A DNA stretch of 63,676 nt, the filler included, from Octopus bimaculoides (Eukaryota), in the NCBI RefSeq assembly GCF_001194135.2. It is 4 parts of 3 records of this genome, joined end to end, with 100 filler letters (N's around TTAATTAATTAA, not from the genome) between each part and the next. Parts side by side here need not be neighbours in the genome. Positions count along the whole stretch, not along the records: positions 1 to 26,607 come from NC_068985.1; positions 26,708 to 29,700 come from NC_068988.1; positions 29,801 to 58,389 come from NC_068985.1; 1 more part is not named here. One strand, given 5' to 3'. The translations under genes were made by a program, and so were the position numbers. The notes beneath the pieces are model-generated. The model saw only the letters and a program-made list of their open reading frames with translations. It searched no databases and had not been told where the DNA came from. Below, in pieces: positions 110 to 35,706 of this stretch (position 1 is the first letter of the stretch; every line of letters starts with the position of its first letter).

Positions 110-150
110 CAGTGACTTTGAAGTTTCGGCAAGCTAAGCCGTCATCGGAC
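110..150 (-). ncRNA. Inverted, damaged hammerhead copy (other arm of the palindrome)
   Basis: Reverse complement reads GT-CCGATGA-CGGCTTAGCTTGCC-GAAA-CTTCAAAG-TC-ACTG. U4C change in the core and weak stem I. Confidence 0.5.
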
Positions 151-191
151 AGTCTGATGATGGCTAGCTGGCTGAAACTTTGAAGTCACTG
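150..191 (+). ncRNA. Minimal type I hammerhead ribozyme motif
   Basis: Stem I CAGT/ACTG; CTGATGA (154-160); extra T; stem II GGCT-AGCT-GGCT (2 Watson-Crick + 2 G.U pairs); GAAA (174-177); near-palindromic CTTTGAAG; GUC ending at 187. Confidence 0.65.
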
Positions 192-725
192 CCAAATCTA
201 TTCTTGTTAAAGAATAATAGATTTGTACTCTATCAAATGTGTTGAGTAATCCTTCAGTTGAATGTAAAATTGCTTTTATCATAATATAAAAACAAACATC
301 TAGAAAAACATATGTACATATCCAAATGCATGATATATATATGTATATACACACACATATACATACATATGTGTGTGTGTGTATACATATATGTGTGTGT
401 ACAAATATATATATATACATACACACATGCATATATTCAAGATGCTAACCTTGTTTTTCTATTTATACTTATTTCCACATATTATTACTTTTACTTTTAG
501 CTAAACTCTCTTATGTTTTATATTTCTTTGTGTAATTCCTTTTAGTCTTTCTTTGATCTTACATACAAAGATAATGTACATTGAGGTAATATATAACCTT
601 GGAAACATGTCCTTATTCATATAGAGGCCTCTTAGCATTGCATATACATGCATGCATTTTTCTTAATTAGCTATATAGCAATTACTGCTTCATTTGTACA
701 CACACGTGCACACACACACACACAT

Positions 726-797
<72 letters not shown>

Positions 798-1137
798 CTA
801 CATTCTGTCTTATAAGAATAAAAACCCAATCTTTCTCTCCTTTTTTTACTGCATCCAAAATGTATTTTCTTTTCTGCAAAATACCAACCACATTCAATGC
901 TTCAAAGTTTGTTTATAAAATGTTATTGCATTCAAAAGTTATAATTAAAGTTCATGGTAATTGTTGTCGGGGAGTCATTTAGCTTAATGGTTAGAGCACT
1001 CAACTGGTATTTGAAGGGTGTGGGTTCAGTCTCATAGCCACCTTATGACTACTTTCTGTCTTATAAGGGTAAATACCCAATCTTTCTCTGATGTTCTTAC
1101 AGCTTTACTGCATTCAAAATTTCCTTTCTTGTCTGCA

Positions 1138-1170
<33 letters not shown>

Positions 1171-1713
1171 AATAAATACTAGATTTAAATATTATAAGTA
1201 ACATGTTCAGATAGTACTCTAATCATGATGTGTATAATTGTCCAGTTTTTCAGGCACAAAGAAAAAAATGAGAAATGGAAAGTTAGGAGAGAAGGGGCGA
1301 TAAGAGTTGTGTCCTTTGGTCAGTTAAAAGGAGGATACTGATAAATTAAAAATGTTTCATGAGATTAATATGATGAGGAAAGGCTCAAGTCTGTAAGACT
1401 TTATGCCTAATGTGGAGAGAGTAGTGTTCTTCAATTCAGCAGCAGAAACTTGTCAAGATGCTTGCATTTTGTGAGAATTTCTGATCTCAAATTCAGTGGG
1501 TCAGTGGAGTTCAAAGCTTTGAGAAGGATATGAGTTCATTCAATTGTACAAAGCCTACACCTCCTTGATTCATTAATGTCTAGCATAGATCACTGTGTGG
1601 TAGAGCATTTTATATATATGTCTATATGAGTGACCTGCTGAGTCCCTAGACTGCATTTTAGATAGCCATAACTGGAAAAGAATGAAACTGTTTATTGTAG
1701 AAATAACCAATCT

Positions 1714-1744
<31 letters not shown>

Positions 1745-2157
1745 GTATATATAATCCAAGAAAGTTAGGGGTTGTGAATCCAACCCACTAAAGGATAATA
1801 TCTATCCAATATACTGCCGGAAGGATACCCAATTATTATCACACTAGTGTTTTTACCAAGTATAATAAATGGGTGCAGGTAAAAGGATATTTTTCCCTTA
1901 ATTTATATAGCAATGATAAAATGGAGCGGAATATGTGGTATTCATTAACTTGCAGACATTGTACTATGTCAATTTACCTGTTTATTTTTTAACTAAGAGG
2001 ACAATAAAAACAATATACAAACACATGTGACATATTATGTCATATCAGTAATTAAAAAGGACATCTAGTGACCGAAGATGGGACAATGTCTTACAGCTGT
2101 TTCAGTCTTGTCATTGTCTTATGTATCTATAGCTTACCACTACGCCCTATGCCCACT

Positions 2158-2235
2158 GGCATAGGGCGTAGTGGTTAAGAGCGCGGGCTACTAATTCCAA
2201 GATTCCAAGATCAATTCCAGGCAGTGACCTGAATA

Positions 2236-2275
<40 letters not shown>

Positions 2276-2440
2276 TAACATTGAAAAATACCTTAGGAAT
2301 GAGAACCCAGGTTCGAAATTTCCCCAAGACACCTGATGAAGGCTGGAGGGTGTATCAGCCAAAACGTTGTGCTAACAACAAACAAGATGAGGACAAATAT
2401 CTGTCAAATGTAAATAATGTACATAATTCTGCATCTTTTA
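2158..2440 (+). mobile_element. Composite tRNA-derived SINE: tRNA-like head, (AAT)n linker, HHR-bearing tail
   Basis: Head GGCATAGGGCGTAGTGGTTAAGAGCGCGGGCTAC... has an A-box and a degenerate B-box; (AAT)n at about 2232-2280; tail contains the HHR motif. Confidence 0.65.
2329..2372 (+). ncRNA. Minimal hammerhead motif with G12A core mutation at the 3' part of a SINE-like repeat
   Basis: ACAC-CTGATGA-A-GGCTG[GAGGGTGTAT]CAGCC-AAAA-CG-TT-GTGC: stem I CAC/GTG, stem II 5 bp, AACGTT palindrome, GUU triplet. GAAA reads AAAA. Confidence 0.55.
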
Positions 2441-2520
2441 AATATAGAATTGTATATGATGCATGTATATATATATATGATATGATGTATTCATATGTAT
2501 AAATTATGATGTATGTATGC

Positions 2521-2554
<34 letters not shown>

Positions 2555-2777
2555 GGATGTATTTGTGTTTCATATGACATATGCATGCATTTATATATCA
2601 TGATTTATAAATTGTATACAATATGATGATATGTGTGTGTGTGTGTGTCTATGTATATGTATATATATCATCATATATCATTAAAAAATTGACTTTTATT
2701 TTTAAAGGAAAACTTATTCCCTATTTGCACACACAAATATATCATGATATATATTGTCTACGCATTGATCATTGATG

Positions 2778-2829
<52 letters not shown>

Positions 2830-2896
2830 NNNNNNNNNNNNNNNNNNNNNNNNNNNNNNNNNNNNNNNNNNNNNNNNNNNNNNNNNNNNNNNNNNN

Positions 2897-2934
<38 letters not shown>

Positions 2935-3608
2935 TTTTACATTTACTGCCAATCAGTGTATTACTTGTTATGGCATATCACTAGTCAGAATGTTACCTTC
3001 AGTTTCTAGCTGACTATGGCACTTGGCAATGTTGATGACTCTTTAGACATACTACCTGGAAGAACATAACCTCTTTTATGCTGCAGGTGTGTATATATAT
3101 ATATATATATGTGAAGAAGAGAATAATCCTTAAGTAATTCACATGATCTGAGTGCTTTCCCAAGCCCCAAAACAACAAAATATTCAGCTGTTGCCCACAT
3201 AAGCAGAAATTCATTTGGGCAATGTGACTGTATCCATTTTTGGACTTGAAAACAGTATACATGTACACACACATACAACAGATGTTTCAACCATGGCTAA
3301 TATGAACCCATGGGAAGTAACTCTTCTTTTTCCTCCAGGAAAATGTTATAATTTTTCACTGTTTCATTTCTATTCTTTTTACCAACTTCAAGCTACTCAG
3401 GGTTTATATATACCTCCTGCATAAAAGAGGCTATGTGCTTTTGGTCATGTCTGAAGAGTCTTCAATATTACCAAGTGTTATAGTTAGCATAAAACACACA
3501 GCAGCAGTCTCATCAGGTATATGCCATGGACAGTAATACACTGCTTGTTTATAAATGTTCTATATTATAAACAGCCTTGGTTTTTTTATCTCATTACGAA
3601 AAGTATAT

Positions 3609-3642
<34 letters not shown>

Positions 3643-4763
3643 AGGAGGGAATTGAAAAGACAATTCAAATAAATAAAGGGAATTATACATCTACCCAGCT
3701 TTTATTATTACAATCATTTATACAATATATTTTATTCAAAGCTCTGTCCAGCATATGTTTCTACTGCATGGATACCTTGCAATGTGGTTTTGATTAGCAT
3801 CCTCTTTTGTTCATCTGCATCAAGATTTCATTTGGGTTCAAAATATGTCCATGCAGCTTTATTCAAAGTGTTGCCACTATTAAAGTTTGAAACAAGCTAG
3901 AGTATAATGGTTTAAGCATTCTTACATTGTAGTAGGGTACTTAGTGTTGAGTGCAAAGAATAAGATAGGAAGTACTTAGAAATCTGATGTGGCTATAAAG
4001 TCCATTATCAGCTTGACTTCAGGATGACTCCAAGGTTGGAATTTCAAATCATGAATGTTGGATATTAAACTTCATCAGAATATATTTCATCCATTAGCCT
4101 TAAGTGAAATAAGTAGGAGAAAATTTCAGCGATAGATGGATATAATTAAGGGTCACTTTAGATCAAATATGCTGTATTAATAACTGTAATGTTAAAAACT
4201 GTGCAGATGTATAATTTTCCCTATTTATTTGAAATGTCTTTGATATACACTCAGTAAACCGAGTATAATCCAATAAAACAAACCCAGGATTTACCCATCA
4301 GATGAAATATTGGGATTGTTTACCTTAAATAGTCCTAGGTTTATTCCTAACCATTTGATGTGGTTAGCCATGACTTGGATTATACTACTGTGCTTGAATG
4401 GTTCCTGTTTGAAGGTATTATATATATATATATAATTTCATTACAATAAACCTTATGGGCAACATGTAAGTTCATATATCAACAAAAATTATAATGCATC
4501 AATGCTTGCCATCATAAATTTCCAGTATGATGATGTACACTACATTGCAGTGGAAAAAAATATCAGTATGAAGGAAAACATTGGGATGTAATGATATATT
4601 ATATACTATAATATATATGTTTATCATTATCATTATTATTATTATGAAAATAATAATAAAATGTGCATATTGTAGAGCATGTGTTTTTCTAAATCACTGA
4701 TTTTTTTATGCAATGCATTTTGCATCAGATTCCTTGTCAAGTAGATACAAGTCTGTTTGTGTA

Positions 4764-4796
<33 letters not shown>

Positions 4797-5176
4797 NNNN
4801 NNNNNNNNNNNNNNNNNNNNNNNNNNNNNNNNNNNNNNNNNNNNNNNNNNNNNNNNNNNNNNNNNNNNNNNNNNNNNNNNNNNNNNNNNNNNNNNNATTT
4901 ATATATATACATATATATGCATATATATATAATATACATATGTGTGTGTGTGTGTATTTATGTATATATATATTACATCTATTACATTCATATTTATGTA
5001 TTGCATAAATATATGTGTGGGTGTATGTATCTGTATATACACACACACAAATACACAATCATTACTATTATCATCATCATTTAACATCTACTTCTCCCTG
5101 CTGGTATAGTTGAAACATATTTCTCTTTATTTCATTCACATAACTCATGTTTTCATGTGCTCTTCAAATCATCAGG

Positions 5177-5208
<32 letters not shown>

Positions 5209-5914
5209 GCTTTTAGATCGTGCTGTGCACACCTATTTCCTTCATTTCTTCTCCCTATTTCATATTTTCTACACTTTTTCAGATTTATCCCATTATAATG
5301 TTCATCACACACTGCTTTTCAGTACCTTTCTGTATCTCATTGAATGTGCTCACTTAATTCCAGTGTTTCACAGTTTACTTCTCTTCCAATTATTTACACA
5401 AATCCATTCACGATGCCTGTTCATCCAGCCTGCAGTATGTATCATACAATTGCATTATATGTCCATACTAGTATAGTCATCTCATTTGCATACATATTAT
5501 TACTTGCTCAACCTTCTTGTGATACACTTTTAGTAAGATCATGCTAGTTTCTTTTTAGGGCAGCTTGTCTACCACTAGCCCTCATCTAGCAACTAACTCT
5601 TACCTGTGGCTTCATGAATTGTCTGCATACAGCAGTGTGCCACTTTCTGAATGATGGCATTGGAACCTGGCTAAGTTAGTCAACATGAGGGTAGTCAACA
5701 TGTTTTGATCACTCAGTGAAACTCTTTATGTGCTTGTCACTCTACACATGTGAAAACTAGATTTCTGGTGCAGAGGGAATCCAACCATGAGTGGTTAAAT
5801 TGTAATTGGTAGAAAGACAATATCAAGCAACATCATAGTGAGATGTACACCTTAAACTAAGCTGAGATATGTTGTTCATTCAAGTTATCTTTTGTATATT
5901 TCTAATCATTTTAA

Positions 5915-6126
5915 CACTTAGCATTTAAACTGGCCACATCCAGCCCAAATATGCCTACTGTTTTATGTTCAAACTTGCCAGATCTCACACCTCCTCTACA
6001 ATGTAATTCTAAATATAGACAATAATATTATCAAAATCTGTAATCTATGAGATGATACATGATTACTTCAGAATAATATGAATAAATAAGCTTTTCATTA
6101 CTCTGGGTAATTTGAACTGTTACGGG
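5915..6126. mobile_element. Same piggyBac-like MITE family, older copy
   Basis: TTAA|CACTTAGCATTTAAACTGGCC ... TTACGGG|TTAA; internal similarity to 60701-60905. Confidence 0.65.
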
Positions 6127-6869
6127 TTAATCTACCTTGCCACTCCAAGAAATCAAGGACTAAAGAGAAGCTGGTCATCTGATGCAGGTCCCTCTCACAA
6201 TAATCCAAGTTCAGTCCAATAGAAAGTGAAATTCTTTTAAAACAAAATAATAGTATACTTGTATGATATTGGTTTGCTCCTCTGAAGGCCAGATTAGCTT
6301 GTAGGTTTACTGTCTTGCATCTTTATCAGAGACAGTAATGATGATGATATTAAGTAACAAACCAGTGGCTCTTTGGCTAACATGCTGGCAGCAAAGCAGA
6401 CTATGATAATATTTTTATCTACCAATATTCTGAAGAAAATTAGTAGTTTTATTTATTCTTGTTACGTATTTAGGATCCTCAAAATTGAAATACATCGTAA
6501 TTATTATGAAGGGCACCCAACCATAAAAACCTCTGCCAACTATAATAGTTATCTATAATGTTCTAATATCTGTACATTGACAACTGTGGTTAGATATATG
6601 ATGATGATGAGGATGATGATGATTGATTTACACACTCATATGCACATTCACACATATCCACACTCTTCCTATTTACATATATACAAACATGCACACAGAC
6701 TATAAGATGCTATTGGAACAGGTAACTACTCATAAAACATTCACTCCAATTATATCAGTTTTAGGTCACATACTGGTCTGTACTTTTACCATAAATCTGT
6801 ACAGTTGCTATGGTAATAACACTGATTGTTGGTAATGACATGTCTACTAAAGTCTCTAAGTAAAAATCT

Positions 6870-6907
<38 letters not shown>

Positions 6908-7710
6908 TATTATTGATATAAAAAGTTTTTTAATTAATATTTTCTTTATTGATAACAACTGATTTCTATTTGTACTTCTTTCACATATATTTTTTTTTAG
7001 AATGATTGAATATTGATTAAAATAATATCATTATGAGAGGGGCTAATTTAACTACATGATATTAATTAATACGAAATTGTAGTATGATGTCCAATATTTG
7101 AAACAATAAAAGACACATTAGTGATGGGAGGGATGGGTAACAGGAAACATTTCTTTATTCATTTGAACCACTCAAAAATGATGCTGTGTTATTTAAAAAT
7201 ATAATTTTTACAGAAATTTCATATGTAATTGAGTTAAAATTTTTATACTTTTGTAAGTAAAGAAAACAGAAACAAAAACCAAAACAATAAAATCTTAAAA
7301 GAATAATAATAAAAAATTCTTGATAAACATCTACTCATTGATTCCTTACTTATTTATAGTCATTTTTTGTATTTGTCCTGGTTTCTAGAACTATCTTTAG
7401 TCATTGATAGGATGTAAGATTAAATAACAGACATCTTTGAGTCCTCTGTAATTCTTTAAACAATATCTGTTCATGTTACAATGAAAGTGTGATCAGTCTT
7501 ATAGAAAATTTAGGAGAATTGCATGGCATGTTATTTTGCATCTTCCTGCATGTTACTATTTGTGATATATGCTAATATTGTGCCATTTTCGTGAAATGAA
7601 TTTGTCATTTGGAAAATCAGCAAGCTGATTGGTCATTATTGTAGTTTGTGTTTCATTTTGTTTTTCTCTAGTGATCTGTAACCTTTTTATCTTTTATAAA
7701 TATAAGAGCA

Positions 7711-7757
<47 letters not shown>

Positions 7758-9429
7758 GCTATCATTGGAAAGTCAAATTATTGTAAAAAATATTTATAAA
7801 ATTAGTAATTTATTCAGTTGAAATAGAAGAAATATAATTGGAATTTGATTCTATGTATGAAATGGTCATTTTTAGTAATTTCTTTTTTCATTATTTGAAT
7901 AATTGTTAGCAGTAACTTTAAATGATTTAGTTATTTTATTATAATTTATGCTAAAGATTGCTATGCAAATTTTTGAAAGTGATCATTAATATGTGTGAAC
8001 AATCAATGTTTTAGCTTTGTTAGATATTAAAACTTGAAAGTTTGTTCATTCTCATTTAGTATTACAAGTCTTGTTTGTTTGAATTTAACAGACTCAGATA
8101 TTGTGTCTGTTGAACTTAAAACTTTTAAAAGTGGTCTTCTGGTTTAGGCTTTATATTTTTTTGTGGGAAATTGGTATATTAGTAAATATTATTAATTATT
8201 TTTTGCAATATGTCAACTTCAACAACTTTGGAATATGAAGATATAATTTTAGTGTTTATCATGTTCATATGTGAAATTTTGAAATTAATTTGTCTTTGAT
8301 TCTCTGTAAGCATGTCTGTGTAAACAGATTACTTTTAGTTCATTTATATGTTAGATGTTTTATTTACTCATAAGTGAAAGTATGTCTTCATAGTTAGCTT
8401 TGCCTTTCAATCTTCCACAATTGGTAAGTGCCAATTGTATATTTGGAATCAATTCAATAAGCTGTGTTTCTTTGTTAAAAAGAATAGAAGCTGGGGACTG
8501 GAAGAGGTCCAGATTTCTGGATTTTCTAGAGACAGTCTAAATATATATACTTAAAATATAAAATAAACTATGAAAAGTAAAAAGATAAATTGTATTTAAA
8601 TTAATTCAAATTAATACACCTCTAAAGCAGGCTTTATTTTATATTTATTAATTCACTAAATATTCTTAAAATATATCATACTATACCATATGCTCGATAT
8701 AACATTTACAAGATGAAAACTAAATGAAGAATATAAAGAACATTTTATTTTTAACAAACCACTTGAAAAAAGTAAAGAACAAAACTATTTTTAGCACGCC
8801 ATATGCAAATTAACCAACTTCAAAAACAGAATCTTTTTACTGCTATTCCACAGTACTCCTGAATTTCTGGAAGCTGGGTAAGACTTCCATTACTGTATTG
8901 GTTTACCAAGTCCATGTTTGAGACTTATTACAATATCAAGTCAGCTGAGTATTCCTGCTCAAATTTATCAACTTAAGGGATGAAAGGCAAAATTGAGCTG
9001 AAACGTAATTTCAAAGTCAGTTTTGGGTTTCAAACGTTCTCTCTCTCTCTATGAGACACACTCACTTGCTTTTATCTACTCTTCAATTCTTTCATGAAAT
9101 TCTGTTAACCATTTCTCCTTTCCTTCTGCTAAAGAATGTAAGAATTATATTGAGAATGATACTACACATAAAAATTTCTTTTAATGTCTTATAGCTTGTG
9201 GTTGATAAAGTTACTGCTTGTTGTGTGTTTCATTAAATTAGAATTATTACTATGTGCTCATTAAATATATCTTCATGTAAATTTATATACTTTATAGTTT
9301 CTACACATACACACGCGCACACATATACACATGCACATATACACACACACACACATATCCAGGCGTATATAATATACATGTATGTGTATATGTATATATG
9401 TTAATTGTGGGTAGTGGGTAGCGATTTTC

Positions 9430-9840
9430 TTCACTACTTCAGGGAGTGACAACCCTGCTTGACACGAGTCCCAGGATCAGCTGGCTCCGGCTGACAGTAC
9501 CCAGTATGGGCCCCTGTCCAGGGTTACGGAAAGGAGACAACCTCAAAGAAATCTGGTGTGGAGCCCCATAGGCGGTTTAGTGTTCAACTCGACACTCTTC
9601 CTGCAGCTCCTGCAACCAAGCTGGTGCCAAACATAATGCTCTGCACTCCTTTGGACTATGCCAGCAAGGTCGAGAGAGGAATCCTGACTATTGGGCTCCC
9701 CAGGATTTTCTTACATCTAGCCCAGGCCTGCGCAAAACTGGAGAGGAAACTGGAGAGGACATGAAATGTAAAAACCAGACTAGATTAGCTGATGCGCAAC
9801 TCCATTGTCTCCCGAGACAAAAGGATGCCAACAATATATA
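9430..9840 (+). mobile_element. Probable LINE 5' UTR fragment (RTE-like)
   Basis: GC-rich island in an AT-rich intron, resembling RTE 5' ends from memory. No clear ORF. Confidence 0.4.
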
Positions 9841-10686: not shown

Positions 10687-10727
<41 letters not shown>

Positions 10728-13734: not shown

Positions 13735-13945
13735 CCTTTCTACTATAGGCACAAGGCCTGAAATTTGGGGGAGGGGACTAGTTGATTACATCAAACCCAG
13801 TGTTTCATTGGTACTTAATTTATCGACCCTGAAAGGATGAAAGGCAAAGTCGACCTCAGTGAAATTTGAACTCAGAACATAGTGACAGATAAAATACCGC
13901 TAAGCATTTCACCTGGTGTGCTAATGGTTCTGCCAGCTTACTGCT
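13735..13945 (-). mobile_element. tRNA-derived SINE family C
   Basis: Head AGCTGGCAGAA.C.TTAGCAC...TTCTGAGTTCAAATT..GAGGTCGACTTTGCCTTTCATCC. Other copies at about 25135-25350, 30085-30250, 32620-32820, 60305-60520 and 62263-62390. Confidence 0.8.
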
Positions 13946-13989
13946 TTGATTATAATAATAATAATAATAATGATGATGATGAAAGCCTA

Positions 13990-14480
13990 ATAATCACTGA
14001 CCAGGCATTGAATACCAACTCAGTGAAAAATAATATATACCACACAAGTGCAACGGACCTCTGCAGAATGTGTGTGAAGAGGGTCAAAAGTGTGACTCAC
14101 ATTGTTAGTGCTTGTGAAAGTCTTGTGCAGAAAGAGTACAAGCGTAGACATGACAAGGTCGTCCAAAACCTCCACTGGTTACAATGTCATAAGTATGGAT
14201 ATGAGATTACAGGTGCTTGGAACCAACATACACCGGAAAAGGTAATAGAGGGGAAGTCAAAAATTCTCTGGCACTTTGATTTCCAGGCAGACAAGGTGTT
14301 AGAGCACTGAAGGCTGGATATAGTAACCTTTAGGAGGGACAAACAAGAATGCCTAATATTTGACATGGCAGTACCAGGAGTTCAACACATCATCATGAAA
14401 GAAACAGAAAAGGTTGATAAATATGGAGAACTGAGAAATGAGATCGCTAAGACATGGCAGCTACGAGAGTCAAACATAAA
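13990..14480 (+). mobile_element. Site-specific-type LINE 3' fragment (CCHC knuckle + restriction-like endonuclease; R4/Dong-like)
   Basis: CRMC...VTHIVSACESL..KEYKRRHDKV...LHW, ILWHFDFQAD...H*RLDIV...IFDMAVP...EKVDKYGEL. Confidence 0.85.
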
Positions 14481-15560: not shown

Positions 15561-16275
15561 TATGTTGTTATTGTTTAATCTAAGCTCAGTCCTAATTGAG
15601 CAAACCTATGATTGAAAGCATTCTACTCTAACCATCCAGTATTTTTACATATGAATGACAGCTTTTGTTTTTGTTTTTTCTGAAGACATCAGGGCTGTAA
15701 TTTGAGGGAGCTTTGACTGCTATTTCTAGCAAATTAATTGGTTACATAAAAGCTCCTTTGGCACAAAGAATACTTTATAATTGTCTCTGGAGCCAACCAT
15801 ACCGTGAGCTCTCGAATTTTAGAAAGAGCAAAGTTTCTGACTATTTTAATTAATAAGGATTCCTGCTGTGTCTCTGAGTACCTTCAAAGAAGTGAAGAGA
15901 TTAAAATTCAGTCCTTAAATGCCATTTCTACTTAGTTTGGTCAATGTTGTTGCTTCTCCATATATTACAATTTTGCTCTAACCCCTTCTCTCATACTTTT
16001 ATCCCCCATCTCTAAACCTGCCTCACCACCACTCGGGGTTCATAGTCTTGTAAGCTGCATAGTGACCTCCGTGCTGGTGCCATGAAAAAGCAATCTGCAA
16101 AGCAATTGGCATTAGGATGGACATCCAGCTGTAGAAACCATGCTAAAGTAGATAGTAAAGCACAATGCAGATTTTGGGTCCATGGGATATTGTCAAATTG
16201 TCCAATCCATGCCAGTATGGAACATGGACATTAAATGATGATTATGATAATGATAATTCTTTTTTTTATTTCCAG

Positions 16276-16599
16276 TTGTCTATGAAACCAAAGTGTGGAA
16301 GACTAGTTGGCTTCAATGCTGCAGATTATCATGGAGTGAAAGCAGTCATAAAAGGCCAGCGCTGTTGTTTGGCTATGTGGTATACTCAAGATCCAGACTT
16401 CAAAGAACTGGCTCATAGCCAAGCTTACAAAATTCTAAAACAAGTAGAGAAAGAGCGAGAGGAAAGCGAAAAATCTAGTTCTGACAGTGCTGACAATGAT
16501 ATTGAAAAAGACCAACCAAATTCTTCTGATTCTTCCACAGACATTTCTTCAAAAGAAAAGAACACAGACAGTATATCGAATAAAAATGAAGAATTGTAG
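16276..16599 (+). CDS. P3H1: Prolyl 3-hydroxylase terminal coding exon
   Basis: T-tract + CAG acceptor. LSMKPKCGRLVGFNAADYHGVKAVIKGQRCCLAMWYTQDP has the distal Fe-binding His and 2OG-binding Arg (cf. PQCGRAVGF...HGVKAVTRGQRCAIALWFTLDP). An acidic/Ser tail ends KNEEL-TAG. Confidence 0.96.
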   Translation: MSMKPKCGRLVGFNAADYHGVKAVIKGQRCCLAMWYTQDPDFKELAHSQAYKILKQVEKEREESEKSSSDSADNDIEKDQPNSSDSSTDISSKEKNTDSISNKNEEL

Positions 16600-16757: not shown

Positions 16758-16794
<37 letters not shown>

Positions 16795-21449: not shown

Positions 21450-22414
21450 TTAGTAATATGCACATGAAACATTACATCATCAGTTGTGTGGATATCCAGT
21501 TCACACATTGATTGTGACTGAAATTACAATACCTCCTGGTCCAGTGTATTTTGATAATTATTCAGTGGAGGATAAGAACTTTATGAAACAACATATTTGC
21601 CATTGCTTAGTGTATGAGTTTCAAAAGAAAAGTACCACTACAAAAGCAATGAAAAACATTTGTGAAGTGTATCCGGAAGCAATGAAAGCTCATATATATC
21701 AGTTGTGGTTTAAAAGGTTTAAAGATGGTGATTGTGTCCTGTCATTTCTGCAGTGCATTGTTACAGGCGATGAACAGGTTTTGCTTCACAACAAAAAATG
21801 AAAAGGACAAAGGTTATTATATAATGAGAGGCCAGTGCCAACATCAAAACCAGAACTCCATCCACAAAAATCCTTGCCCTGTGTTTGGTGGAACATGAAA
21901 GGTATCATCCATTATGAGCGATTGGAACATAGAAGGACCATCAATGCAGATGGCTATTGCCAACAACTTGATCATGTAAATGAAAAATTACGTCAAAAGG
22001 GGTCAGCTTTGGTAATCAGAAAAGGTGTTATTCTCCAGCATGACAATGCCTCACTACACTCTTCAAAACAAACCCAAGAAAAAATAAAATCATTAGGATG
22101 GGAAGTTCCTCCACATCCTCCATGTTCATCTGATTCAACTCCTATGGATTTCCATCTGTTCTGATCACTAGATTCTTTTATAAGGGGCAAAACATTCAGA
22201 AATAGAAAGGAAGTTGAAAAGTCTTTCTGACATTTTTTCAGCAAAAGAAATAGGCTTCTTTGAACATGGCTTTAAAAAGTTATTTTCCTGTTGGGCTGCA
22301 GCCATTGAAAATGATGGTGATTACATTCTTGATTAAAACTATTCAGATAAACATAGTTTACATCAGTTTTTATATCTTTTCTGGTAAAATACAATTACTT
22401 TCCAAACACCCTAA
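21450..22414 (+). mobile_element. Internally deleted, degenerate mariner transposon
   Basis: IVTGDEQV, KPELHPQK...VWWNMKGIIHYE, LQHDNASLH and HPPCSSDSTPMDFHLF. Right TIR-like end at 22414; left boundary approximate. Confidence 0.88.
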
Positions 22415-24583: not shown

Positions 24584-24639
<56 letters not shown>

Positions 24640-25550: not shown

Positions 25551-25910
25551 GCAGGCATGGCTGTGTGGTAAGAAGTTTGCTCCCCAACCACATAGTTTGA
25601 AGTTCAGCCCCACTGCATGGCACCTTGGCAGGTGTCTTCTGCAGCCTCAAGCCAACCAAAGCCTTGTGAGTGAATTTGGTAGAGGGAAACTGAAAGTAGT
25701 GTGTGTATGTGTGTGTGTATGTCCCCCACCACTGCTTGACAACTGGTGTTTGTGTGTTTACATTCCTGTAACTTAGCTGTTCAGCAAGAAGCTGATAGAA
25801 TAAGTACCAAGCTTTTAAAAAAAAAAAAAAAGGTATTGGGGTTGATTCATTCAACTAAAATTTCTTCATGGCCACAATCTAATGACAGAAAGAAGTAAAA
25901 AGATAAAATG
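25551..25910 (+). mobile_element. SINE family A copy
   Basis: Same head, core and tail. Confidence 0.8.
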
Positions 25911-26248
25911 TTTGTGTGTGAATGTAGGCATATATAATGCAAATAGTCATTGGAGGTTTTGTTGTGATAGTTTGTGTTGTGGCAAATCCTTGGTAAAACT
26001 TGCACACATGCTAACACATACCGACATGTATACAAACACACAATAACACTATAATCATGAATCTCAACATAGTAAGTGCATATACACACAAACACAACAC
26101 ATTTTGCAAACACAGTTACACACACACACTCAAATATACATCCATATCTGTACAACATGCAGAACACAAGCATATATGCATGCACGCAAATATATTTTCA
26201 TTGTAATCTGAGATGAGCAACGGACACAAACATACATATTAACATTTC

Positions 26249-26607
26249 CCATCAGGAATCACTGCAGAGATGCTCAAAATATCTGGCAGTGTTGGCTATA
26301 GCCTAGTCACCCGTATTACGAACCAGGTGATACACGAAGGAGTCATACCCAATGACTGGTGTAGCAGCATCATAGTCAACTGCTACAAAGGTAAAGGTGA
26401 CGCTTTAGATACAAATAATTACAGAGGCATCAAGCTGTTAGATCAGGTTATGAAAGTTACAGAGAGGGTCATAGCCCAACTAATTAGGGAGCGAATCAAT
26501 TTAGATGAGATGCAGTTTGGGTTCGTGCCAGGTAAAAGCACTACTGATGCCTTATTTCTAGTGAGACAGCTGCAGGAGAAATACCTAGCTAAGGATAAAC
26601 CTCTGTA
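26249..26607 (+). mobile_element. RTE-clade LINE reverse transcriptase fragment, open frame running into a gap
   Basis: PSGITAEMLK...IPNDWCSSIIVNCYKGKGDA...NNYRGIKLL...QFGFVPGKSTTDALFLVRQLQEK are RT domains 0-2. Confidence 0.92.
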
Positions 26608-26651
26608 NNNNNNNNNNNNNNNNNNNNNNNNNNNNNNNNNNNNNNNNNNNN

Positions 26652-26663
26652 TTAATTAATTAA
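26652..26663. other. Assembly linker TTAATTAATTAA embedded in N runs (also at about 29745 and 58434)
   Basis: Identical 12-mer flanked by Ns at three places, giving stops in all six frames. Not biological. Confidence 0.9.
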
Positions 26664-26788
26664 NNNNNNNNNNNNNNNNNNNNNNNNNNNNNNNNNNNNN
26701 NNNNNNNATATATATGTGTGTGTATATGTATGTGTATATATATGTATGTATGTATATATATATATATACACACATACATATATATATA

Positions 26789-27170
26789 TATACGTGTATA
26801 AGGGATGACCACTAGGTGGACATCCAATATGCTAGAAAGAGGTCATCAACGACCCAACCGCAATGTAATCGGTAGAACTATATGCAAGTCGTGTTTCATG
26901 AAGACAATTCGTCTATAGTTCTGCAAATTATATTAATTCCAGAACGTCTATGCTGATGAGAACACAGATGTTGTTACGTAAGTAAAACGTTAATGTTCGA
27001 AACTGCAGTCCATAGATAATTCTTTATTCTGTATATTTCTCATTTTGTCCTGTTCTTGTGTTTTCCGAAATTTTTCTGGAGAACATTATTTTTCTTTGTG
27101 GTTGGGTCGTTGATGATCTCTTTCTAGCATATTGGATGCCCACCTAGTGGTCATCCATTATACACGTGTA
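26789..27170. mobile_element. 382-bp MITE-like element with 75-bp terminal inverted repeats, containing an HHR
   Basis: 26789-26863 versus the reverse complement of 27096-27170: 70 of 75 positions identical. Both ends are TA; the left end abuts a (TA)n tract. Confidence 0.85.
26946..27017 (+). ncRNA. Type I hammerhead ribozyme motif, apparently intact
   Basis: Stem I TCTATG (26947-52)/CATAGA (27011-16); CTGATGA (26953-59); stem II GAACA/TGTTC; GAAA (26999-27002); palindromic stem III CTGCAG; GUC triplet ending at 27010. Found by eye; activity untested. Confidence 0.82.
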
Positions 27171-27325
27171 TTACAATTTTTTCTGAATTTTCAGATTTTT
27201 TTTATATGCTAGGCCACTTGGTTTTAAATTCAATTAATATTCAATTTATCACCCTATCTATATAAATAATATATATATATATATCACCCTATCTATATAA
27301 ATAATATATACATATATATATATAT

Positions 27326-27864
27326 CACTACAATTGTTTCCACGCAATTTAGTTCTCCAGATCGCGGTATTTGGTTATATAACCGTTTCCCTGCCTTATG
27401 AGACCTAGTTGTGTTTCCTCTGGTAATATATAGATATTGTTTCTGTAAGCTCAAATTCTCGGCTTCCAGTGTATCCTTTCTGTCTGTCGTAGTTTGCGAT
27501 GAAGTAGTAAGCACAGAGTATATAAAAAAATATGTGGTTGAAAGTCTGTTGATAAACTGCTTTAAATGTATAAATGGAGTAGGGGTAGCTATGCTATGGA
27601 TGGTGAGTATTGAGGTTAATATTAAAGGGTGTGCCATTTTATTTCTTTGTGTTGTTAATTTAGTCTTCATGGTTAGTTACACATGCCACTGTCCTTGGCT
27701 GACCTTCAAAACTTAACCAGTCATTCAGTTGATGAACTTACATTATATATACATACCCGTACATGTTCTCACACACATATACATCTTCATAATGCAGGGA
27801 AACGGTTACATAACCAAAACCCTGCGAACATGGAGAACTGCATTGCGTGGAAACAATTGTAGTG
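27326..27864. mobile_element. Non-autonomous element with CACTA termini and about 80-bp TIRs
   Basis: Begins CACTACAATTGTTTCCACGCAAT and ends with its exact 23-nt reverse complement; imperfect TIR continues to about 27403/27784. AT dinucleotide on both flanks. Confidence 0.8.
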
Positions 27865-28092
27865 ATTACAATGAAATGTTCTTCTGTACTCTCTCTCATT
27901 CAATTATCCATTCACACATTACAAAAGCCCCAACGCAAATCTGGCATTACGTATAATATTACTGCTGGATAGCACCGGGTGAAATCTAAAGGTGGATGAG
28001 CTTTATACTATACTCTATTGCGTTCTTCACAGAATATAACCTAACTGCATATATATGTGTATATGCGTGTGCGTGTAGGTATATACACATGC

Positions 28093-28926
28093 ACACACAC
28101 ATACATATGGCAAGAGAGAGAGAGAGAGAAAGGGAGAGAGAGAGAGAGAGAGAAAGGGAGAGAGAGAGAGAGAAAGGGAGAGAGAGAGAGAGAGAAAGGG
28201 AGAGAGAGAGAGATNNNNNNNNNNNNNNNNNNNNNNNNNNNNNNNNNNNNNNNNNNNNNNNNNNNNNNNNNNNNNNNNNNNNNNNNNNNNNNNNNNNNNN
28301 NNNNNNNNNNNNNNNNNNNNNNNNNNNNNNNNNNNNNNNNNNNNNNNNNNNNNNNNNNNNNNNNNNNNNNNNNNNNNNNNNNNNNNNNNNNNNNNNNNNN
28401 NNNNNNNNNNNNNNNNNNNNNNNNNNNNNNNNNNNNNNNNNNNNNNNNNNNNNNNNNNNNNNNNNNNNNNNNNNNNNNNNNNNNNNNNNNNNNNNNNNNN
28501 NNNNNNNNNNNNNNNNNNNNNNNNNNNNNNNNNNNNNNNNNNNNNNNNNNNNNNNNNNNNNNNNNNNNNNNNNNNNNNNNNNNNNNNNNNNNNNNNNNNN
28601 NNNNNNNNNNNNNNNNNNNNNNNNNNNNNNNNNNNNNNNNNNNNNNNNNNNNNNNNNNNNNNNNNNNNNNNNNNNNNNNNNNNNNNNNNNNNNNNNNNNN
28701 NNNNNNNNNNNNNNNNNNNNNNNNNNNNNNNNNNNNNNNNNNNNNNNNNNNNNNNNNNNNNNNNNNNNNNNNNNNNNNNNNNNNNNNNNNNNNNNNNNNN
28801 NNNNNNNNNNNNNNNNNNNNNNNNNNNNNNNNNNNNNNNNNNNNNNNNNNNNNNNNNNNNNNNNNNNNNNNNNNNNNNNNNNNNNNNNNNNNNNNNNNNN
28901 NNNNNNNNNNNNNNNNNNNNNNNNNN

Positions 28927-28968
<42 letters not shown>

Positions 28969-29003
28969 GAGAGAGAGAGAGAGAGAAAGGGAGAGAGAGA
29001 GAG
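28093..29003. repeat. (AG)n/(AGAAAGGG) purine microsatellite spanning an N gap
   Basis: Read directly on both sides of the gap at 28215-28926. Confidence 0.95.
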
Positions 29004-29522
29004 ATGATAAAAACTATTTGTCTAGATGTAGCTGTGTACATTCGGTGTCCATTCCGTACACATGACAATATACGTGCTTAATTAGCCTCAAGTTTATAGT
29101 TATGGTGGCTGTCAATATTTTAATCCTACAATCTTTCTAGAAACATTTCAGCAATGTTTAAACACTCAAATATCCGAAAAAATCTGACATCGTTGCTACT
29201 CGTTGTTATTATTGTTGAAAGTTGTTGTAGATGCATAATATTTGCCTTCTTATCTTTTTTGCCATTCATCATATATCATATATCAGCAGGCAACTACCAT
29301 ATACATCTATTGACTGCCAACCATGCACCTATACTCCACCTCCACCATACATTTATCCATTATTCAACACACATATGAATGCTAAAATCTCAAAGATAGG
29401 ATGTAAGGCATTCAATTCAGTAAAGCATATGCTGAAAGCAAAATTAAATGATACCATACGTGCCAGACTATTTAAAAGCACCGTCCAACCTGCACATATA
29501 CATACATATATACGTACATACA

Positions 29523-29587
<65 letters not shown>

Positions 29588-31439
29588 TTTTAAAAAGCAG
29601 CAAAAATATCACAAAAACTGTTATTCATACAAATACACACACATATAGACACGCATACAAATATACAAATAAATATATACGTAAACATATATAAGTATAT
29701 NNNNNNNNNNNNNNNNNNNNNNNNNNNNNNNNNNNNNNNNNNNNTTAATTAATTAANNNNNNNNNNNNNNNNNNNNNNNNNNNNNNNNNNNNNNNNNNNN
29801 ATATATATATATATACATACATATATTTTGTGTGTCCGTGTTTGTCCCACCACTATTGCTTGACAACCAATGTTGGTGTGTTTACATCCCCATAACTTAG
29901 CGGTTCAGCAAATGAGACTGATGGAGTAAGTACTAGGCTTACAAAGAATGTCTTGGGTTGATTTGTTCAACTAAAAGTGATGCTCCAGCACAGCCACAGT
30001 CAAATGACTGAAACAAATAAAAGAATAAATTAATGAATAAGGTTAATGTATATATAATGAATTTGCCATTTTCAATGGGTGTGCCGTAGTCAATTGCGTG
30101 AACTCCAGTGCTCCACTGGTACTTCTTCAACCTCAGAAAGATGAAAGCCAAAGTCAATCCCAGTGGAATTTAAACACTGAACATAAAGATGGACAAAATG
30201 CCTCTTTGGATTTTGCCCGGCAAGCTAACAATTCTGCCAGTTTGTTCCTTAAATAATAATAACAATGACAATAATGATGATGGTGATTTCTTACATGCAA
30301 ACAGATTCTCTAATTTGGAGAAAGGAACAGTTGAATATATCGACCCTTGTACTTAACTAGTAAGTACTTTATTTGATCGACCTTGGAAGAATGAAAAGTG
30401 AAGTCAGTTTCAGTTGGATTTAAATTCAGAAGTTAAAGGACCATAACTAGATATCTCAAGGCATTTTGTCTGATGCTCTAATAATCTTTGCACTCCACTG
30501 AGTATTTCTATGCTAGTAAACAATCTAAGCATATAAGGAAAAAAAAAACCAGTAGTAGTGTCTAATGAGAGGTCTGTAAAATCCATCATTAGTTAAGAAG
30601 GCTGTAGTTCTCTAATGGCCTTTGTAGTTAATGGAGGGAATCTGTCCACCACCTCCCACTCAGCATGTTGTTAAACTCTTTTGCTACCAACCCATTGTAG
30701 ACCACCCCTAGTTTTGTGATTGATAAATCCAAATTTGAATAGTGTTGGTGTTCAAATTAAAATCTCCCATCAAAAAATTCATATAAGAATCTTTTGTTCT
30801 TATCTAACTTGAACACCAAACGCTATCCTAATAACTGTTTCTAATATATGCACAAGGCTAGAAATTTCTGAGTGCAGACTAGTCAATGAAATTTGCCCTA
30901 GTATTTGACTGGTACTTTGTCATCAAATCCTAGAAGGATGAAAGGTAAAGTTCTCAGCAGGATTTGAACTCAAGAATGTGAAGAGCCAAAACAAATGCTG
31001 CTGCAAAGCATTGTTTTCAATGCTCTCGTGATTCTGCTACTCCACACTCCCCTATCCATCACTAACAATTGAGTATGCCTTGGTGACATTTATCCTTCCA
31101 ACACTAATTGTTGTTGGTGACTTTTAGCTATGAACAGGCATAAACACCTACTCAGCTTTCCTACTCAATATTTCCAGCAGAATATCAAAGATGTAACTGG
31201 AGGAAGTTAGGAGACTTCACACCATCGTCCAGTTGATACTAATTCTGAGCTGATTAGATTGGTTCTATGTGAATTAGAGCACCTTGCTTAAAGGCACGAT
31301 GTATTGCTCAGTCAAGGAATTGTACCTACAGACTTATGATTGAAAATCCAATAACTTTACCACTAGGTCCCTGCCCCATAACACCATCTTAATAATGAAG
31401 AAATCTTTTCTACCAGATTCACACATATTTTTCTTTTAT

Positions 31440-31812
31440 TATTTTACTTGTTTCAGTCATTTGACTGCAGCCATAGTGGAGCACTGCCTCTAGTCGAGCA
31501 AATCGACCCCAGGACTTACTCTTTGTAAGCCTAGTACTTATTCTATCAGTCTCTTTAGCCAAACTGCTAAGTTACGGGTATGTAAACACACTAGCATCAG
31601 TTGTCAAGCGATGTTGGGGGCAGGGGAACAAACGCACGCATGCACACACACACACACACATATATGATGGACTTCTTTCAGTTTCCACCTACCAAATCCA
31701 CTCACAAAGCTTTGCTTGACCCAAAGCTATAGTAGAAGACACTTGCCTAAGGTGCCACACAGTGGGACTGAATCCAGAACCCTGTGGTTGGCAAGCAAGC
31801 CACTCTTGCACC
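31440..31812 (-). mobile_element. SINE family A copy
   Basis: Same family. Further copies lie at about 18600-18800, 29825-30030, 32215-32595, 34415-34712 and 58060-58320. Confidence 0.85.
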
Positions 31813-34354
31813 TATTTGTTAATATTTTTGAAATCAATTAAACTGCATCAGCTAGTATTTCATTAGGAAATAATAATCCTTAATTTGCCACAAGGCCAGC
31901 AATTTTGAGGGATGGGAAAGTCAAATGCCCCAGCGTTCCACTGGTACTTTATCGACCCTGAAAGGACAAAAAGCAAATTTAACCTCAGTGGAACTTGAAC
32001 TTGGAACATAAAGACAGATAAAATGCCCTGGGAACTTTTTTTAAAAGTCAATACTGTGTACTACTATGTTAGCAGTGCACTTAAATCACATGTTACGGTC
32101 ATCTCTAAGTATTGACTTCTAAAAATGTTTAATACACTTTGTAGCATATTATGGTTGCATAACAAAATACCGTGTGCTTACTAGTCATTACTGAGAACGT
32201 TATCCTGTGTTTTTTTTACTTGTTTTTTTTTAACTTGCTACAACAAGGCTGGAGCACCACCTTGAAGGGTTTTAGTCAGTGCTTATTCTATCAGTCTGTT
32301 TTGCTGAATTGCTAAGTGATGGAGATGTAGACACATCAACACTGGTTGTCAAGCAGTAATGGGGTGACAGACACACATACATAGATATGCACGCATGCAC
32401 ACACACACACACACACATGCACACACACACACACACACACATGATGGGCTTCTTTCAGTTTCCATTTACCAAATCCACTTACAGGGCTTTGGTTGGCCTG
32501 AGGCTGTAGTAGATGACACTTGCCAAAGGTGCCATACAGTAAGACTGAACTTAGAACCATATGGCTGAGAAGCAAGCTTCTTAGCACACAGCCAGTGCTA
32601 ACATTTCTACCAGCTCACTGCATTAGCTCACAGAATTGTTTGCATGCTGGGCAAAATGCTTAGGAGTAGTTTGTCCATCTGTTCTGAGTTCAAATTCCAC
32701 TGAGGTCAACTTCGCTTTTCATCCTTTTGGAGTCAATAAAATAAGTACTTTTGAGCATGAGAGTCATTGTAATCAACTCAACCCCTCCGCCGAAATTGTT
32801 GTTGTGCCAAAATTTTAAATCAATAGTAAAAGGGTTACACATTTGTGGAAGTTATTTTCTTTCTCTCTTTTTATCTTTTACTTTGCTTGCAATGCTTTGT
32901 GGTTTCTTCAGGTGACTGACTAAATGGTAAATCCAATCAGACTGTCACTTGTCTTTCTGTCTGCCAGGCTATCACACTGTGTGTCTGTCATTCTTTACTG
33001 CTTATCATTCATTCATACTATATGACTGTCATTCACTTAGTGCTGCCTGTCAATCAGTTGTTCTGTATGTCTGTGAGATTAGTAAAGAGACCAGCAAGAG
33101 ATAAACTCTAAATATCTTCACAGATGCTATGAGATATATCAATTTAGAGGAGAAGCAGTTTCATATTTACTTTTAAAGTATTGTTTACCTCTGTCTCACA
33201 TTTTAACCATGACTGGTTTTTTTTTTTAACATTTTGTAAATAGTTTCACTTTTGTGTGTGTGTGCGTGTAATAATACATGCAATCAAGTAGACACACACG
33301 GTGGTGGAGGGGAGTACTCAGTCTATGTAGGAGAGTTTGTTTGAAGTGTTGAGTGACTCATTAGCACTGAAGAAATGTATATCTTTTGCAAGCAAATACA
33401 CTCATACATGCATACATATGTACACATGCATAAACACCTACACACATATACACACACACATGCATGTGTGTATATATATATATACACGCACATGCGTGTG
33501 TGTATGTATATATATATACACACACACACATACACACACACACACACACACATGTACACATACTTATACGTACCCATGCACACATGTACATGCACACTTA
33601 CATGTACACATACATAGATACACCTACACACACACCCCTACTTGCACACACATTATTTGAATGCAGGCATGCCAGAAGAGTTAAGAAGTTAACTTTTAAC
33701 TCATTAGAGGCCCTGCTGAAAACCCATTACCTGGTACCTGAATGAAAGTGGATTGGTGGAAAGTGTACGGAAGCATATCAAATGGACTGTACATGTAATT
33801 CGATGACCCTACTTTGTTACACACCCTCACTGAGTCATGTTGAACCTACCTATTAAAAGTGCAAGTATCTGTATGATACTCAACCACTTACATTATAAAT
33901 GCAATATGTAGGTTCTTCCATTCAACAAACAACTGCAACATATACATTTTTTACATTCATTTTACTTCCATTTTTCTTCCATGCAAACTTGGTTTAGATT
34001 TGCAACAATGTTATTAAGGCATTCTTTTTACAGCTGGATAACCCTCCTGTCACTAACTCTTACCCATTTTTAAAACACACACACACACACACACAATCAC
34101 GTGCGTGCATGTGTGTGTTTGTGGTGAGGGATACAGTGTTGGATGACATGATAAATAGATATATGCAGTTAGTGCTGAAGTTGAATTTGGACCTAATCTC
34201 CAGCTTTAAATGTACCACTCAAACTGGAGTCCACCATTGCAAGTATTAAGAACTTTCAACAGTCAGGACTTTTCCTGACTTCCTGTTCTATATATACAGA
34301 GATAGAGAGAAAGAGAGAGAGTGTGTGTATGTTTGAAGTGGTGTACAGATATTG

Positions 34355-34836
34355 TATATTGAGAAAAAGGAGGCAGTCAGAATTTTGGATAATTCTTTAT
34401 TAGTGCTTTCTTTCAGGTCAGTCCTACTGCATGGCACCTTGGAGAAGTGTCTTCTACTTTAGCCTTAGGCCGACCAAAGCCTTGTAGGTGGATTTGGTAG
34501 ATGGAAAGCTCTGTGTTTGTCCCCCCTCCCCCAACATCGCTTGACAACCGATGGTGGTGTTTTTACGTCCCTGTAACTTAGCAGTTTGGCAAAAGAGACA
34601 GATAGAATAAGTACTAGGCATACAAAGAATAAGTCCTGTGGTCGGTTTGCTCGACTAAAGGCAGTGCACCAGCATGACCGCAGTCAAATTACTGAAACAA
34701 AAGAATAAAAAAATTCGTTTATCAAACGCATGAAGACAAAATCGAAGCAATTTTGATTTTGTCTCGTTTGATAAACGAATGAAAGTGCTAATAAAGAATT
34801 ATCCAAAATTCTGACTGCCCCCTTTTTCTCAATATA
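34355..34836. mobile_element. About 180-bp fold-back palindromic element split by a SINE insertion
   Basis: 34355-34410 plus 34713 onward pairs with 34781-34836 and the hairpin 34713-34780. The SINE at 34415-34712 interrupts the left arm. Confidence 0.75.
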
Positions 34837-35706
34837 TATATATTGTCTTATCTTCGAAACGTCAGGTTAGAATAGAGACAGCTGATGAAGGAATATTCCA
34901 AGTGGCTTTCCGTTTTCCTATGTGTTCGTTACGTTGTCTGTAGTTCATTGTTCTAACGTCCTGTACACTGATATGCATATATATACACATGTAGATGTAA
35001 GTATGTACATATATGTGTGTATACATGTATATATATTCTTTGTATTATTATTATATATATATATATATATGTATGTATGTGTGTGTGTATGTATGTATGT
35101 GTGTGTATACACACACACACACACACATGCTGATAAGCATTAGTTTTTCTTCTATGTGCGCATAAGCATGTATATATTTACTTGTGAATATATCTGTGTA
35201 CAGTGCATGTCTCCAAGTGTTTTAGTGGATAGTATTAAACTAGCATTTACTTTAGTCTGGTACTTTATTCTCTATTTCTTCAACTACTTACTAAATTACA
35301 GGACATGTTGAGACAGCATAAAGACAGGCACACTTACATGCACACATACACACACACAATGCTTGTGTGTGTGTGGTGATGGGAGGGGGTACTTATATGT
35401 ATAACTGTTATGGTTCAAAGAATTGTATTGATATAAATGTATTCATGTGAATAATGGAAAGAATGCAGAAACAGAGGACACAAATATAGATGCAAAGCTA
35501 AAAATGGAAAATATGCAAATGATGTTGTTGATGATGGGGTGGTGGTGGTGGTTGACGATGACCACCACCACATATTTGAAAATGAAAAGTGCCTCACAGC
35601 CAGCCAAGTGGGATCATGAAATATTATTCAGTATTAAGGCAGTAAAGACTGCCTTAACAGGTATTTCTTTTGGCAACAACAATTGAAGATTAGCTAGCTC
35701 TTGATT

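Follow-up and report, generated by a model that had tools for sequence, protein, structure and literature searches.

Penelope-like elements (PLEs) of the endonuclease-bearing Penelope/Poseidon type (PMC3846280, PMC11167929, PMC8557442) carry a reverse transcriptase (RT) open reading frame (ORF), a partial tandem that forms a pseudo-long terminal repeat (pLTR), an inverted 5'-truncated copy, a tail at one end and a hammerhead ribozyme lying over the ORF start, and they occupy AT-rich targets. Hammerheads of PLEs are described as minimal type I motifs with a palindromic stem III (PMC4209133, PMC6765202). A hammerhead of another kind, type-SGC HRIMA-1 and its variants, was found in metatranscriptomes and in no genome of a known organism (Eckert et al. 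2023, PMC10085705). Naiads, which form a clade of PLEs (Craig et al. 2021, PMC8557442), were stated to lack canonical hammerheads, and an 'HHR_half_core' was marked for Naiad_Ovul and Naiad_Esco. Here, these systems are compared with 63,676 nt of the Octopus bimaculoides genome (the window, meaning the whole stretch analysed), composed of four joined stretches in which loci 1 and 2, locus 3 and locus 4 represent three separate genome places. A first-pass annotation had reported hammerhead motifs or half-motifs at these four loci, each in or beside an inverted repeat. Taken together, the data are likely explained by truncated PLE ends whose inverted arms arise by two-ended priming and, at locus 4, by an element with an S-G-C hammerhead that is predicted to cut itself.

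Family searches over the 2.34-Gb genome returned 1,697 to 2,977 first-look candidates per locus family, of which 40 were scored per search; all family counts given below refer to the loci fetched rather than to the genome as a whole, except where a pattern count is named. At locus 4, the plus strand holds what would be the 3' product side of a type-SGC hammerhead (34844-34893), with a stem I strand at 34844-34848, a GAAA block at 34856-34863, a partner strand at 34876-34881 and the core at 34882-34888, followed on the same strand by the rest of the family-4 unit and its tail (34894-35048), which runs into (TA)n. Because the window copy has its start 1 nt past the predicted cut, it lacks the UH triplet and the stem III 3' strand, and the first-pass annotation saw half-motifs only. 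The locus never was of type I, which fits none of 58 family-4 loci, and the half-motif gives way to a permuted hammerhead whose parts are complete elsewhere in the family. A type II hammerhead without stem I had also been considered and was superseded once the S-G-C block order was found.

In long family-4 copies, an upstream block provides the 3' strand of stem III, the UH triplet and one stem I strand, and is followed by a short linker, the GAAA block and, last, the core block. A pattern with the G-then-C order gave 654 matches versus 0 in the control, GAAAC preceded CUGAUGA in 100 of 100 exact pattern matches (control, 0), and stems I and III were completed in 18 of the 30 first pattern loci (shuffled mean 0.06, maximum 2 in 2000). 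In an alignment of 29 copies, which were picked for a retained upstream block after dropping 9 of the 30 pattern loci and three others (truncated, inverted, duplicated or deleted), CUGAUGA, GAAA and a UH triplet (GUC 10, GUA 6, GUU 6, AUC 4, AUA 2, CUC 1) are present throughout, 94.6% of the cells are paired versus at most 58% in slid controls, and 34 cells carry double changes (0 of 500 shuffles). Across subfamilies, both sides have changed in six pairs, four of stem I and two of stem III, while those of stem II have changed on one side only. Comparison of these sequences indicates that family 4 would very likely adopt the type-SGC (non-circularly permuted) hammerhead fold. As in the published ribozymes (PMC10085705), the blocks follow the S-G-C order, two pseudoknots would form, stems I and III covary and, in subfamilies a and d, stems I and II are joined by a linker of ca. 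3 nt; family 4 differs in being made of high-copy animal retroelements, in the weakness of its stem II and the presence of a bulged base, in a fourth helix that has no support above shuffles, and in that its cleavage is a prediction. A literature search, with most subscription papers and the figures and supplements of PMC10085705 outside its reach, gave no report of type-SGC in animals. If Naiads and their non-coding derivatives do carry it in active form, animal genomes hold hundreds to thousands of copies of a pseudoknotted ribozyme that was known from environmental RNA alone; a covarying fold of this kind would also imply that a whole class is overlooked in ribozyme surveys of animal genomes.

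That this hammerhead cleaves in vivo is a model-based expectation which we consider reasonably probable. Twelve of the 26 resolvable subfamily-a copies start between -1 and +10 of the stem I strand (rough binomial, 4e-5), and no copy of the subfamily-a pattern set starts in the 30 nt before it; a deletion in the reference used for these 5' ends makes full-length copies seem to stop at -3, and these were read from another alignment. The motif might instead be a conserved signal for protein binding or reverse transcription derived from a hammerhead, or another fold, that does not cut. This would agree with the weakness of stem II, with a fourth helix that does not exceed shuffles and with the finding that ribozyme cleavage is dispensable for insertion in vitro (PMC11167929), yet it appears unlikely in view of the retention of CUGAUGA, GAAA and UH in all 29 aligned copies, of the covariation of stems I and III and of copy 5' ends situated just 3' of the predicted cut. 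A self-cutting type-SGC motif is thus preferred, and several observations weigh against it. The 29 rows belong to four subfamilies, so that the 34 double-change cells represent few events; stem II consists of no more than a G-C pair, a G.U pair and a single variable pair, and the search pattern fixed some of the columns. The interaction helix between stems I and II is no better than in shuffles (mean 4.07 vs. 3.91), at least 4 Watson-Crick pairs being found in 20 of 29 copies and in 61% of shuffles. Finally, a start within 1 nt of the cut is seen in only 3 of the 12 truncated copies, and the others begin at +2 to +10.

Family 4 is composed of closed non-coding units in partial tandems. One clear inverted copy was found in 56 subfamily a/b loci, together with three short AT-rich matches, and three abutting ones in 30 loci of subfamilies c/d. 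With Naiads (PMC8557442) the family shares (TA)n targets and S-G-C wiring at 3' ends, and it differs from them by having no ORF in the loci examined. The published Naiad consensi of octopus and squid were read by eye: at the 3' ends of Naiad_Obim and Naiad_Ovul, stem III is 5 bp long, the triplet is GUA, stem I is 6 bp long, the linker is 3 nt and stem II has the G-C/G.U pairs of family 4, and that of Naiad_Esco displays stems I and III. The family-4 motif likely represents the ribozyme reported as absent from Naiads; if so, the 'hammerhead-less' PLE clade does have a hammerhead, and the Naiad ribozyme gap would be closed by an SGC fold that covaries at their 3' ends. We infer, with some confidence, that family 4 is copied by Naiad-type enzymes acting as helper. 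A search for a parent of family 4 recovered only a non-coding extension and, as a point against a PLE helper, neither a PLE-protein match nor a long ORF was found beside any of 55 family-4 loci, with Penelope-type queries that a distant ORF could escape.

Loci 1 to 3, as well as a fifth family located beside locus 4, can be regarded with high confidence as truncated PLE ends, and the architecture stressed in the first-pass annotation is the known textbook structure of PLEs. The PLE-type nature that it had proposed for the hammerheads is supported, with complete type I motifs at loci 1 and 3 and a defective copy at locus 2. A type I descriptor with palindromic stem III found only the complete motifs of loci 1 and 3 in the window, versus 0.013 expected from 4 matches in 300 first-order Markov simulations of the window run with the identical descriptor. 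The Rfam scan detected a hammerhead in neither the window nor 20 family loci.

At locus 1, a short arm on the minus strand (87-148), which is a tail-less inverted copy of the hammerhead region and stops at the inner 3' end of the family, adjoins a long plus-strand arm (149-299) with a type I hammerhead and a tail of ca. 75 nt that corresponds to the 3' end of a PLE. The hammerhead is complete (stem I 149-153/188-192, core 154-160, predicted cut after 187), its stem III is fully palindromic, and the repeat noted at 110-191 is a portion of a longer fold-back at 87-215 (z -13). In family 1, the complete hammerhead is kept in 1 of 29 loci, and 7 of 29 loci from a one-arm query, the first query having favoured palindromes, continue upstream into an ORF remnant. 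The best named atlas family for this remnant, in which the RT was not reached, is GIY-YIG (0.92, 21% of members), and its layout resembles by eye that of a Hydra endonuclease; the ORF piece had no match in Pfam or in a protein sequence search. Locus 1 is likewise a PLE end, most probably the truncated 3' end of a coding PLE with an upstream ORF remnant resembling a GIY-YIG domain.

Locus 2 comprises an 18-bp snap-back arm on the minus strand (2136-2153), a mirror copy of the head, followed on the plus strand by a hairpin loop and tRNA-like head (2154-2232) with an intact A box and, in the window copy, a damaged B box, by an (AAT)n run of variable length that is part of the element (2233-2280) and by a pLTR (2281-2452) with a hammerhead, in which G12 is changed to A, and a tail of ca. 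25 nt. The fold-back at 2136-2175 has a z of -8.5. In the window hammerhead the core is present, GAA reads AAA and stem I has a mismatch; the type I test failed and this copy is predicted to be dead. The form is complete in 8/29 and 3/29 loci of two sets, with a GUU triplet and ACGU as stem III. In full-length copies the tail reads into the ORF start and the tRNA-like head is found between the ORF stop and the next pLTR. One such element (L206) is made of an inverted 754-bp tail-less copy, a 5' pLTR, an RT ORF with a match to Pfam RVT_1 (E 1.8e-7), the tRNA-like head, (AAT)n, the hammerhead and the tail. An RT ORF likewise occurs in L090 and in L260, a second full-length element with a partial tandem, and head and ORF are contiguous in L063, L071, L090, L220 and L267. 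Among 24 database relatives, 23 are 54-63% or 40% identical and 11 have an RT. No Pfam match for any GIY-YIG endonuclease at the C-terminal end was obtained in family 2, and an endonuclease-like motif was read by eye at the C-terminus in L260 and in relatives P0004 and P0024. Locus 2 is the truncated end of a coding PLE and its tRNA-like piece lies inside the coding element. In L071:1700-2490, an inverted RT piece is joined straight to the endonuclease end, in a manner that recalls twin priming with a deletion.

Locus 3 is formed by a short inverted arm on the minus strand (26788-26863), which stops at the inner 3' end of the family, and by the main copy on the plus strand (26858-27270), a 5'-truncated copy of a non-coding unit of ca. 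520 bp with a tail of ca. 95 nt. Its type I hammerhead is intact (26946-27018, with core 26953-26959, a 7-bp stem I and a predicted cut after 27010), stem III reads ACUGCAGU and is fully palindromic, and the motif is kept in 18 of 29 family-3 copies. Cofolding of two window copies predicted a dimeric hammerhead at locus 3, which was not the case at loci 1 and 2. The 29 loci hold partial tandems of closed, non-coding units and show inverted copies whose length varies. The inverted repeat at 26788-27171 is real, but the terminal inverted repeats (TIRs) that had been placed at 26789-27170 were not confirmed: the element runs ca. 95 nt past the right arm, the short arm is not a TIR, and arm lengths vary between loci. 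The same features led to rejection of a miniature inverted-repeat transposable element (MITE), and the layout of the window was seen in only 2 of 29 other loci despite a query that favoured it.

The Penelope/Poseidon-type structure (PMC3846280, PMC11167929, PMC8557442) is found in family 2, including the inverted 5'-truncated copy, one-end tail, hammerhead over the ORF start and AT-rich targets, and is common to families 1, 3 and 5; a partial tandem forming a pLTR is present in families 2 to 4, and an inverted 5'-truncated copy with a tail at one end in families 1 to 3. Family 2 departs from the published elements by its tRNA-like segment and (AAT)n between ORF stop and hammerhead, and families 1 and 3 do so by their tails (ca. 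75 and ca. 95 nt), which are longer than the published 30-40 bp. With minimal type I hammerheads of PLEs (PMC4209133, PMC6765202), loci 1 to 3 share the type I order and the palindromic stem III, families 1 and 2 an extra nucleotide before stem II, and locus 3 the predicted dimer fold, while the GUU triplet of family 2 and the long interrupted stem II of family 3 are unlike them. Family 3 resembles the metazoan non-LTR retrozymes (PMC7229834; bioRxiv 10.64898/2026.07.22.740005) in its PLE-tied non-coding hammerhead units, and is unlike them in forming partial tandems rather than arrays and in its 107-135 reads per run. Family 2 is similar to the hammerhead-bearing schistosome repeats that resemble short interspersed elements (SINEs) (PMC6765202) in combining a head of RNA polymerase III (Pol III) type with a hammerhead, except that its head belongs to a coding element.

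The first-pass annotation had seen in these loci several non-autonomous families bearing ribozymes, some of them captured into SINE and MITE chassis, and had considered that the inverted repeats might regulate cleavage. Families 3 and 4 are indeed non-coding, the start of most family-2 copies lies at the tRNA-like head or 3' of it (with a query that favoured such starts), and the locus-1 ribozyme would be sequestered by a fold-back arm. Against this, the arms are variable and tail-less and the element extends beyond the right 'TIR', leaving no MITE chassis; the head follows the ORF stop in full-length family-2 copies, being contiguous with the ORF in the five loci named above, and so is not absent from the autonomous partner as capture by a SINE would have it; and most copies are decayed, as illustrated by family 1. 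We therefore regard the capture scenario as highly improbable. Non-autonomy stands for families 3 and 4 and falls for families 1 and 2, which are truncated ends of coding PLEs in family 2 and most probably in family 1; loci 1 and 2 are ordinary fragments of PLE LTRs, an outcome the annotation had itself held to speak against its reading. Nothing in the analysis supports a regulatory role of the inverted repeats in cleavage.

An origin of the inverted repeats in the insertion mechanism, suggested as well, is supported by two fixed 3' ends and by abutting copies. Inverted repeats are frequent in the window (367 pairs), and a single rule, scoring self-derived copies that abut head-to-head, was applied to families and controls. 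Such copies occur in 9/28 loci of family 1, in 10/25 and 15/24 loci of two partly overlapping sets of family 2 and in 5/28 loci of family 3 (two favoured by the query), compared with 0/105 and 0/49 (0/154 in all) for two common SINE-like repeats used as controls in the same loci. In each of families 1 to 3 there are two 3' ends, and a long arm is nearly always paired with a short one: this was the case for all eight resolvable family-3 pairs besides that of the window and for 5 of 6 in the family-2 head-query set, which was not chosen for the tail, and the tail was found on none of 16 inverted arms of family 2, where main arms had been chosen for it. Insertion flanks are mostly simple repeats. 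In published work both target strands are cleaved and extended, two internal RT starts bound the tail and the protein is predicted to form a dimer (PMC11167929), and self-priming was proposed for inverted PLE copies in a study that left the matter open (PMC3846280).

Two-ended priming, in which both cut target strands prime reverse transcription, is the probable source of the inverted arms. A dimeric PLE protein would start one complementary DNA (cDNA) at each of two internal start sites; the cDNAs would reach the 5' end of the RNA, where a short quasi-palindrome would permit head-to-head annealing or snap-back, and microhomology jumps would complete the junction. Production of all arms by self-priming, either through snap-back of one cDNA or through priming on an antisense template (PMC3846280), is doubtful. 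It is favoured by the arms of locus 2, both of which carry a variant that none of 55 other copies has, by short mirror extensions of variable length at the family-2 hairpin and by family-1 arms that carry common subfamily variants within one locus. However, outer ends fall at the second 3' end of the family rather than at random, and the family-2 loop is found in both orientations (GT 8, AC 5, ambiguous 6). Many junctions are moreover asymmetric, such as the 754-bp inverted ORF end joined to a 5' pLTR, and for this reason a single fold-back is insufficient. The account by two-ended priming has its own exceptions, namely one long-plus-long pair (L271), one short-plus-short pair (L189) and window locus 2, where plain snap-back copying is seen; because of the latter, two-ended priming is not the whole story, and snap-back may represent a second route. 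The fixed long and short ends and the junctions at predicted RNA starts provide a testable model for PLE head-to-head repeats. The broader proposal, that Naiads and their non-coding derivatives bear an active type-SGC hammerhead setting the 5' end of the RT template and that PLE inverted arms are two cDNAs annealed at the RNA 5' end, is somewhat favoured. A literature search, from which most subscription papers were outside and which included PMC10886601 and PMC13282606, gave neither a tRNA head in a PLE nor such a junction model.

The RNA 5' end would differ between families. In family 1 it would be set on the stem I arm by a TATA-directed start and in family 2 by a start immediately ahead of the tRNA-like head, and family 4 would obtain it through the ribozyme cut. 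The 5' strand of stem I is where the junctions and many of the 5' ends of family 1 are located, and a TATA motif lies 31 nt upstream of this strand in 10 of the 12 parents with both motifs found (of 25 parents). Such a TATA spacing is an established promoter geometry, and it suggests that the stem I strand of family 1 may be a transcription start. Read by eye, 25 loci have A (15), T (8) or another base (2) at the junction centre, with T in 8/23 loci versus 2/24 parents (p 0.036).

In family 2, 5' ends of copies cluster at a short hairpin just before the head, and we give slightly less than an even chance to the short copies being SINE-like Pol III transcripts initiated from the tRNA-like head rather than RNA polymerase II (Pol II) transcripts or RT stops. 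The head matches A and B box consensus motifs, and TTTT is found in 0 of 30 copies within 140 nt after the (AAT)n run. On the other hand, a TATA-like box is located ca. 28 nt upstream of the same start, as in family 1, so that a Pol II start fits too; ARAGORN gave no tRNA in 37 loci and Rfam none, the head having only weak matches to phage tRNAs (E 0.7-3). Only 1 of 29 head-query loci extends into the ORF, with a query that favoured head starts, and a clustering of the 5' ends of family 2 around the type I cut was unconvincing (4/29 nearby, two with microhomology). RNA reads amounted to 6,785-9,679 for family 2 and, as given above, far fewer for family 3 per run of 11.5-12.9 million. No pile-up of read starts or ends was seen for either family at heads or predicted cuts, which speaks against the RNA ends proposed here, in libraries that are apparently unstranded and fragmented, with both directions equally covered, and whose species match is unconfirmed. 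A second B-box-like motif occurs at 2300-2325, directly before the family-2 hammerhead of the window.

All four inverted repeats of the first-pass annotation exist, and that assigned to locus 4 (34355-34836) is an unrelated neighbour which belongs to the fifth family (840 candidates). The locus-4 motif was found in 0 of 11 other family-5 loci, and the 34355-34836 arm in no fetched locus besides that of the window. Family 5 reads on the minus strand in its long arm (34332-34414), ca. 22 nt longer than the short arm, and is interrupted by an unrelated common SINE-like repeat on the plus strand (34415-34705), which served as control, before the junction and short arm (34706-34836, plus strand) with a decayed hammerhead-like motif of variant core. 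The family has long and short arms and variable junctions. Its type I-like motif has a CUUGAYGA core (an extra U, or U at position 3), a 5-bp stem II, a palindromic AGCGCU stem III and a CUA triplet, and a loose pattern of it is matched by 9 of the 11 other loci (L292-L302).

Other features were noted in the window or the genome. A generic type I pattern gave 43 genome matches versus 0 in the control, mostly from a single additional family, whose stem III is not palindromic and whose triplet is GUC. A decayed inverted pair (2939-3050 with 3447-3558), with CUGAUGA on the minus strand at 3516 and (TA)n flanks, is possibly another PLE-type insertion. The stretch at 973-1043 is tRNA-like, scoring 33.6 bits, above the Rfam tRNA cut-off, with no call by ARAGORN, and is probably a SINE head or a pseudogene. 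PLE peptides had no match in the fragments at 21457-22164, 26243-26607 and 13870-14310, which resemble a mariner transposase, an RTE-type RT and the C-terminus of a long interspersed element, respectively. Finally, an open frame at 16159-16599 resembles a late exon of a prolyl hydroxylase-type gene, and that at 51794-52171 ends in a fibronectin type III-like exon.

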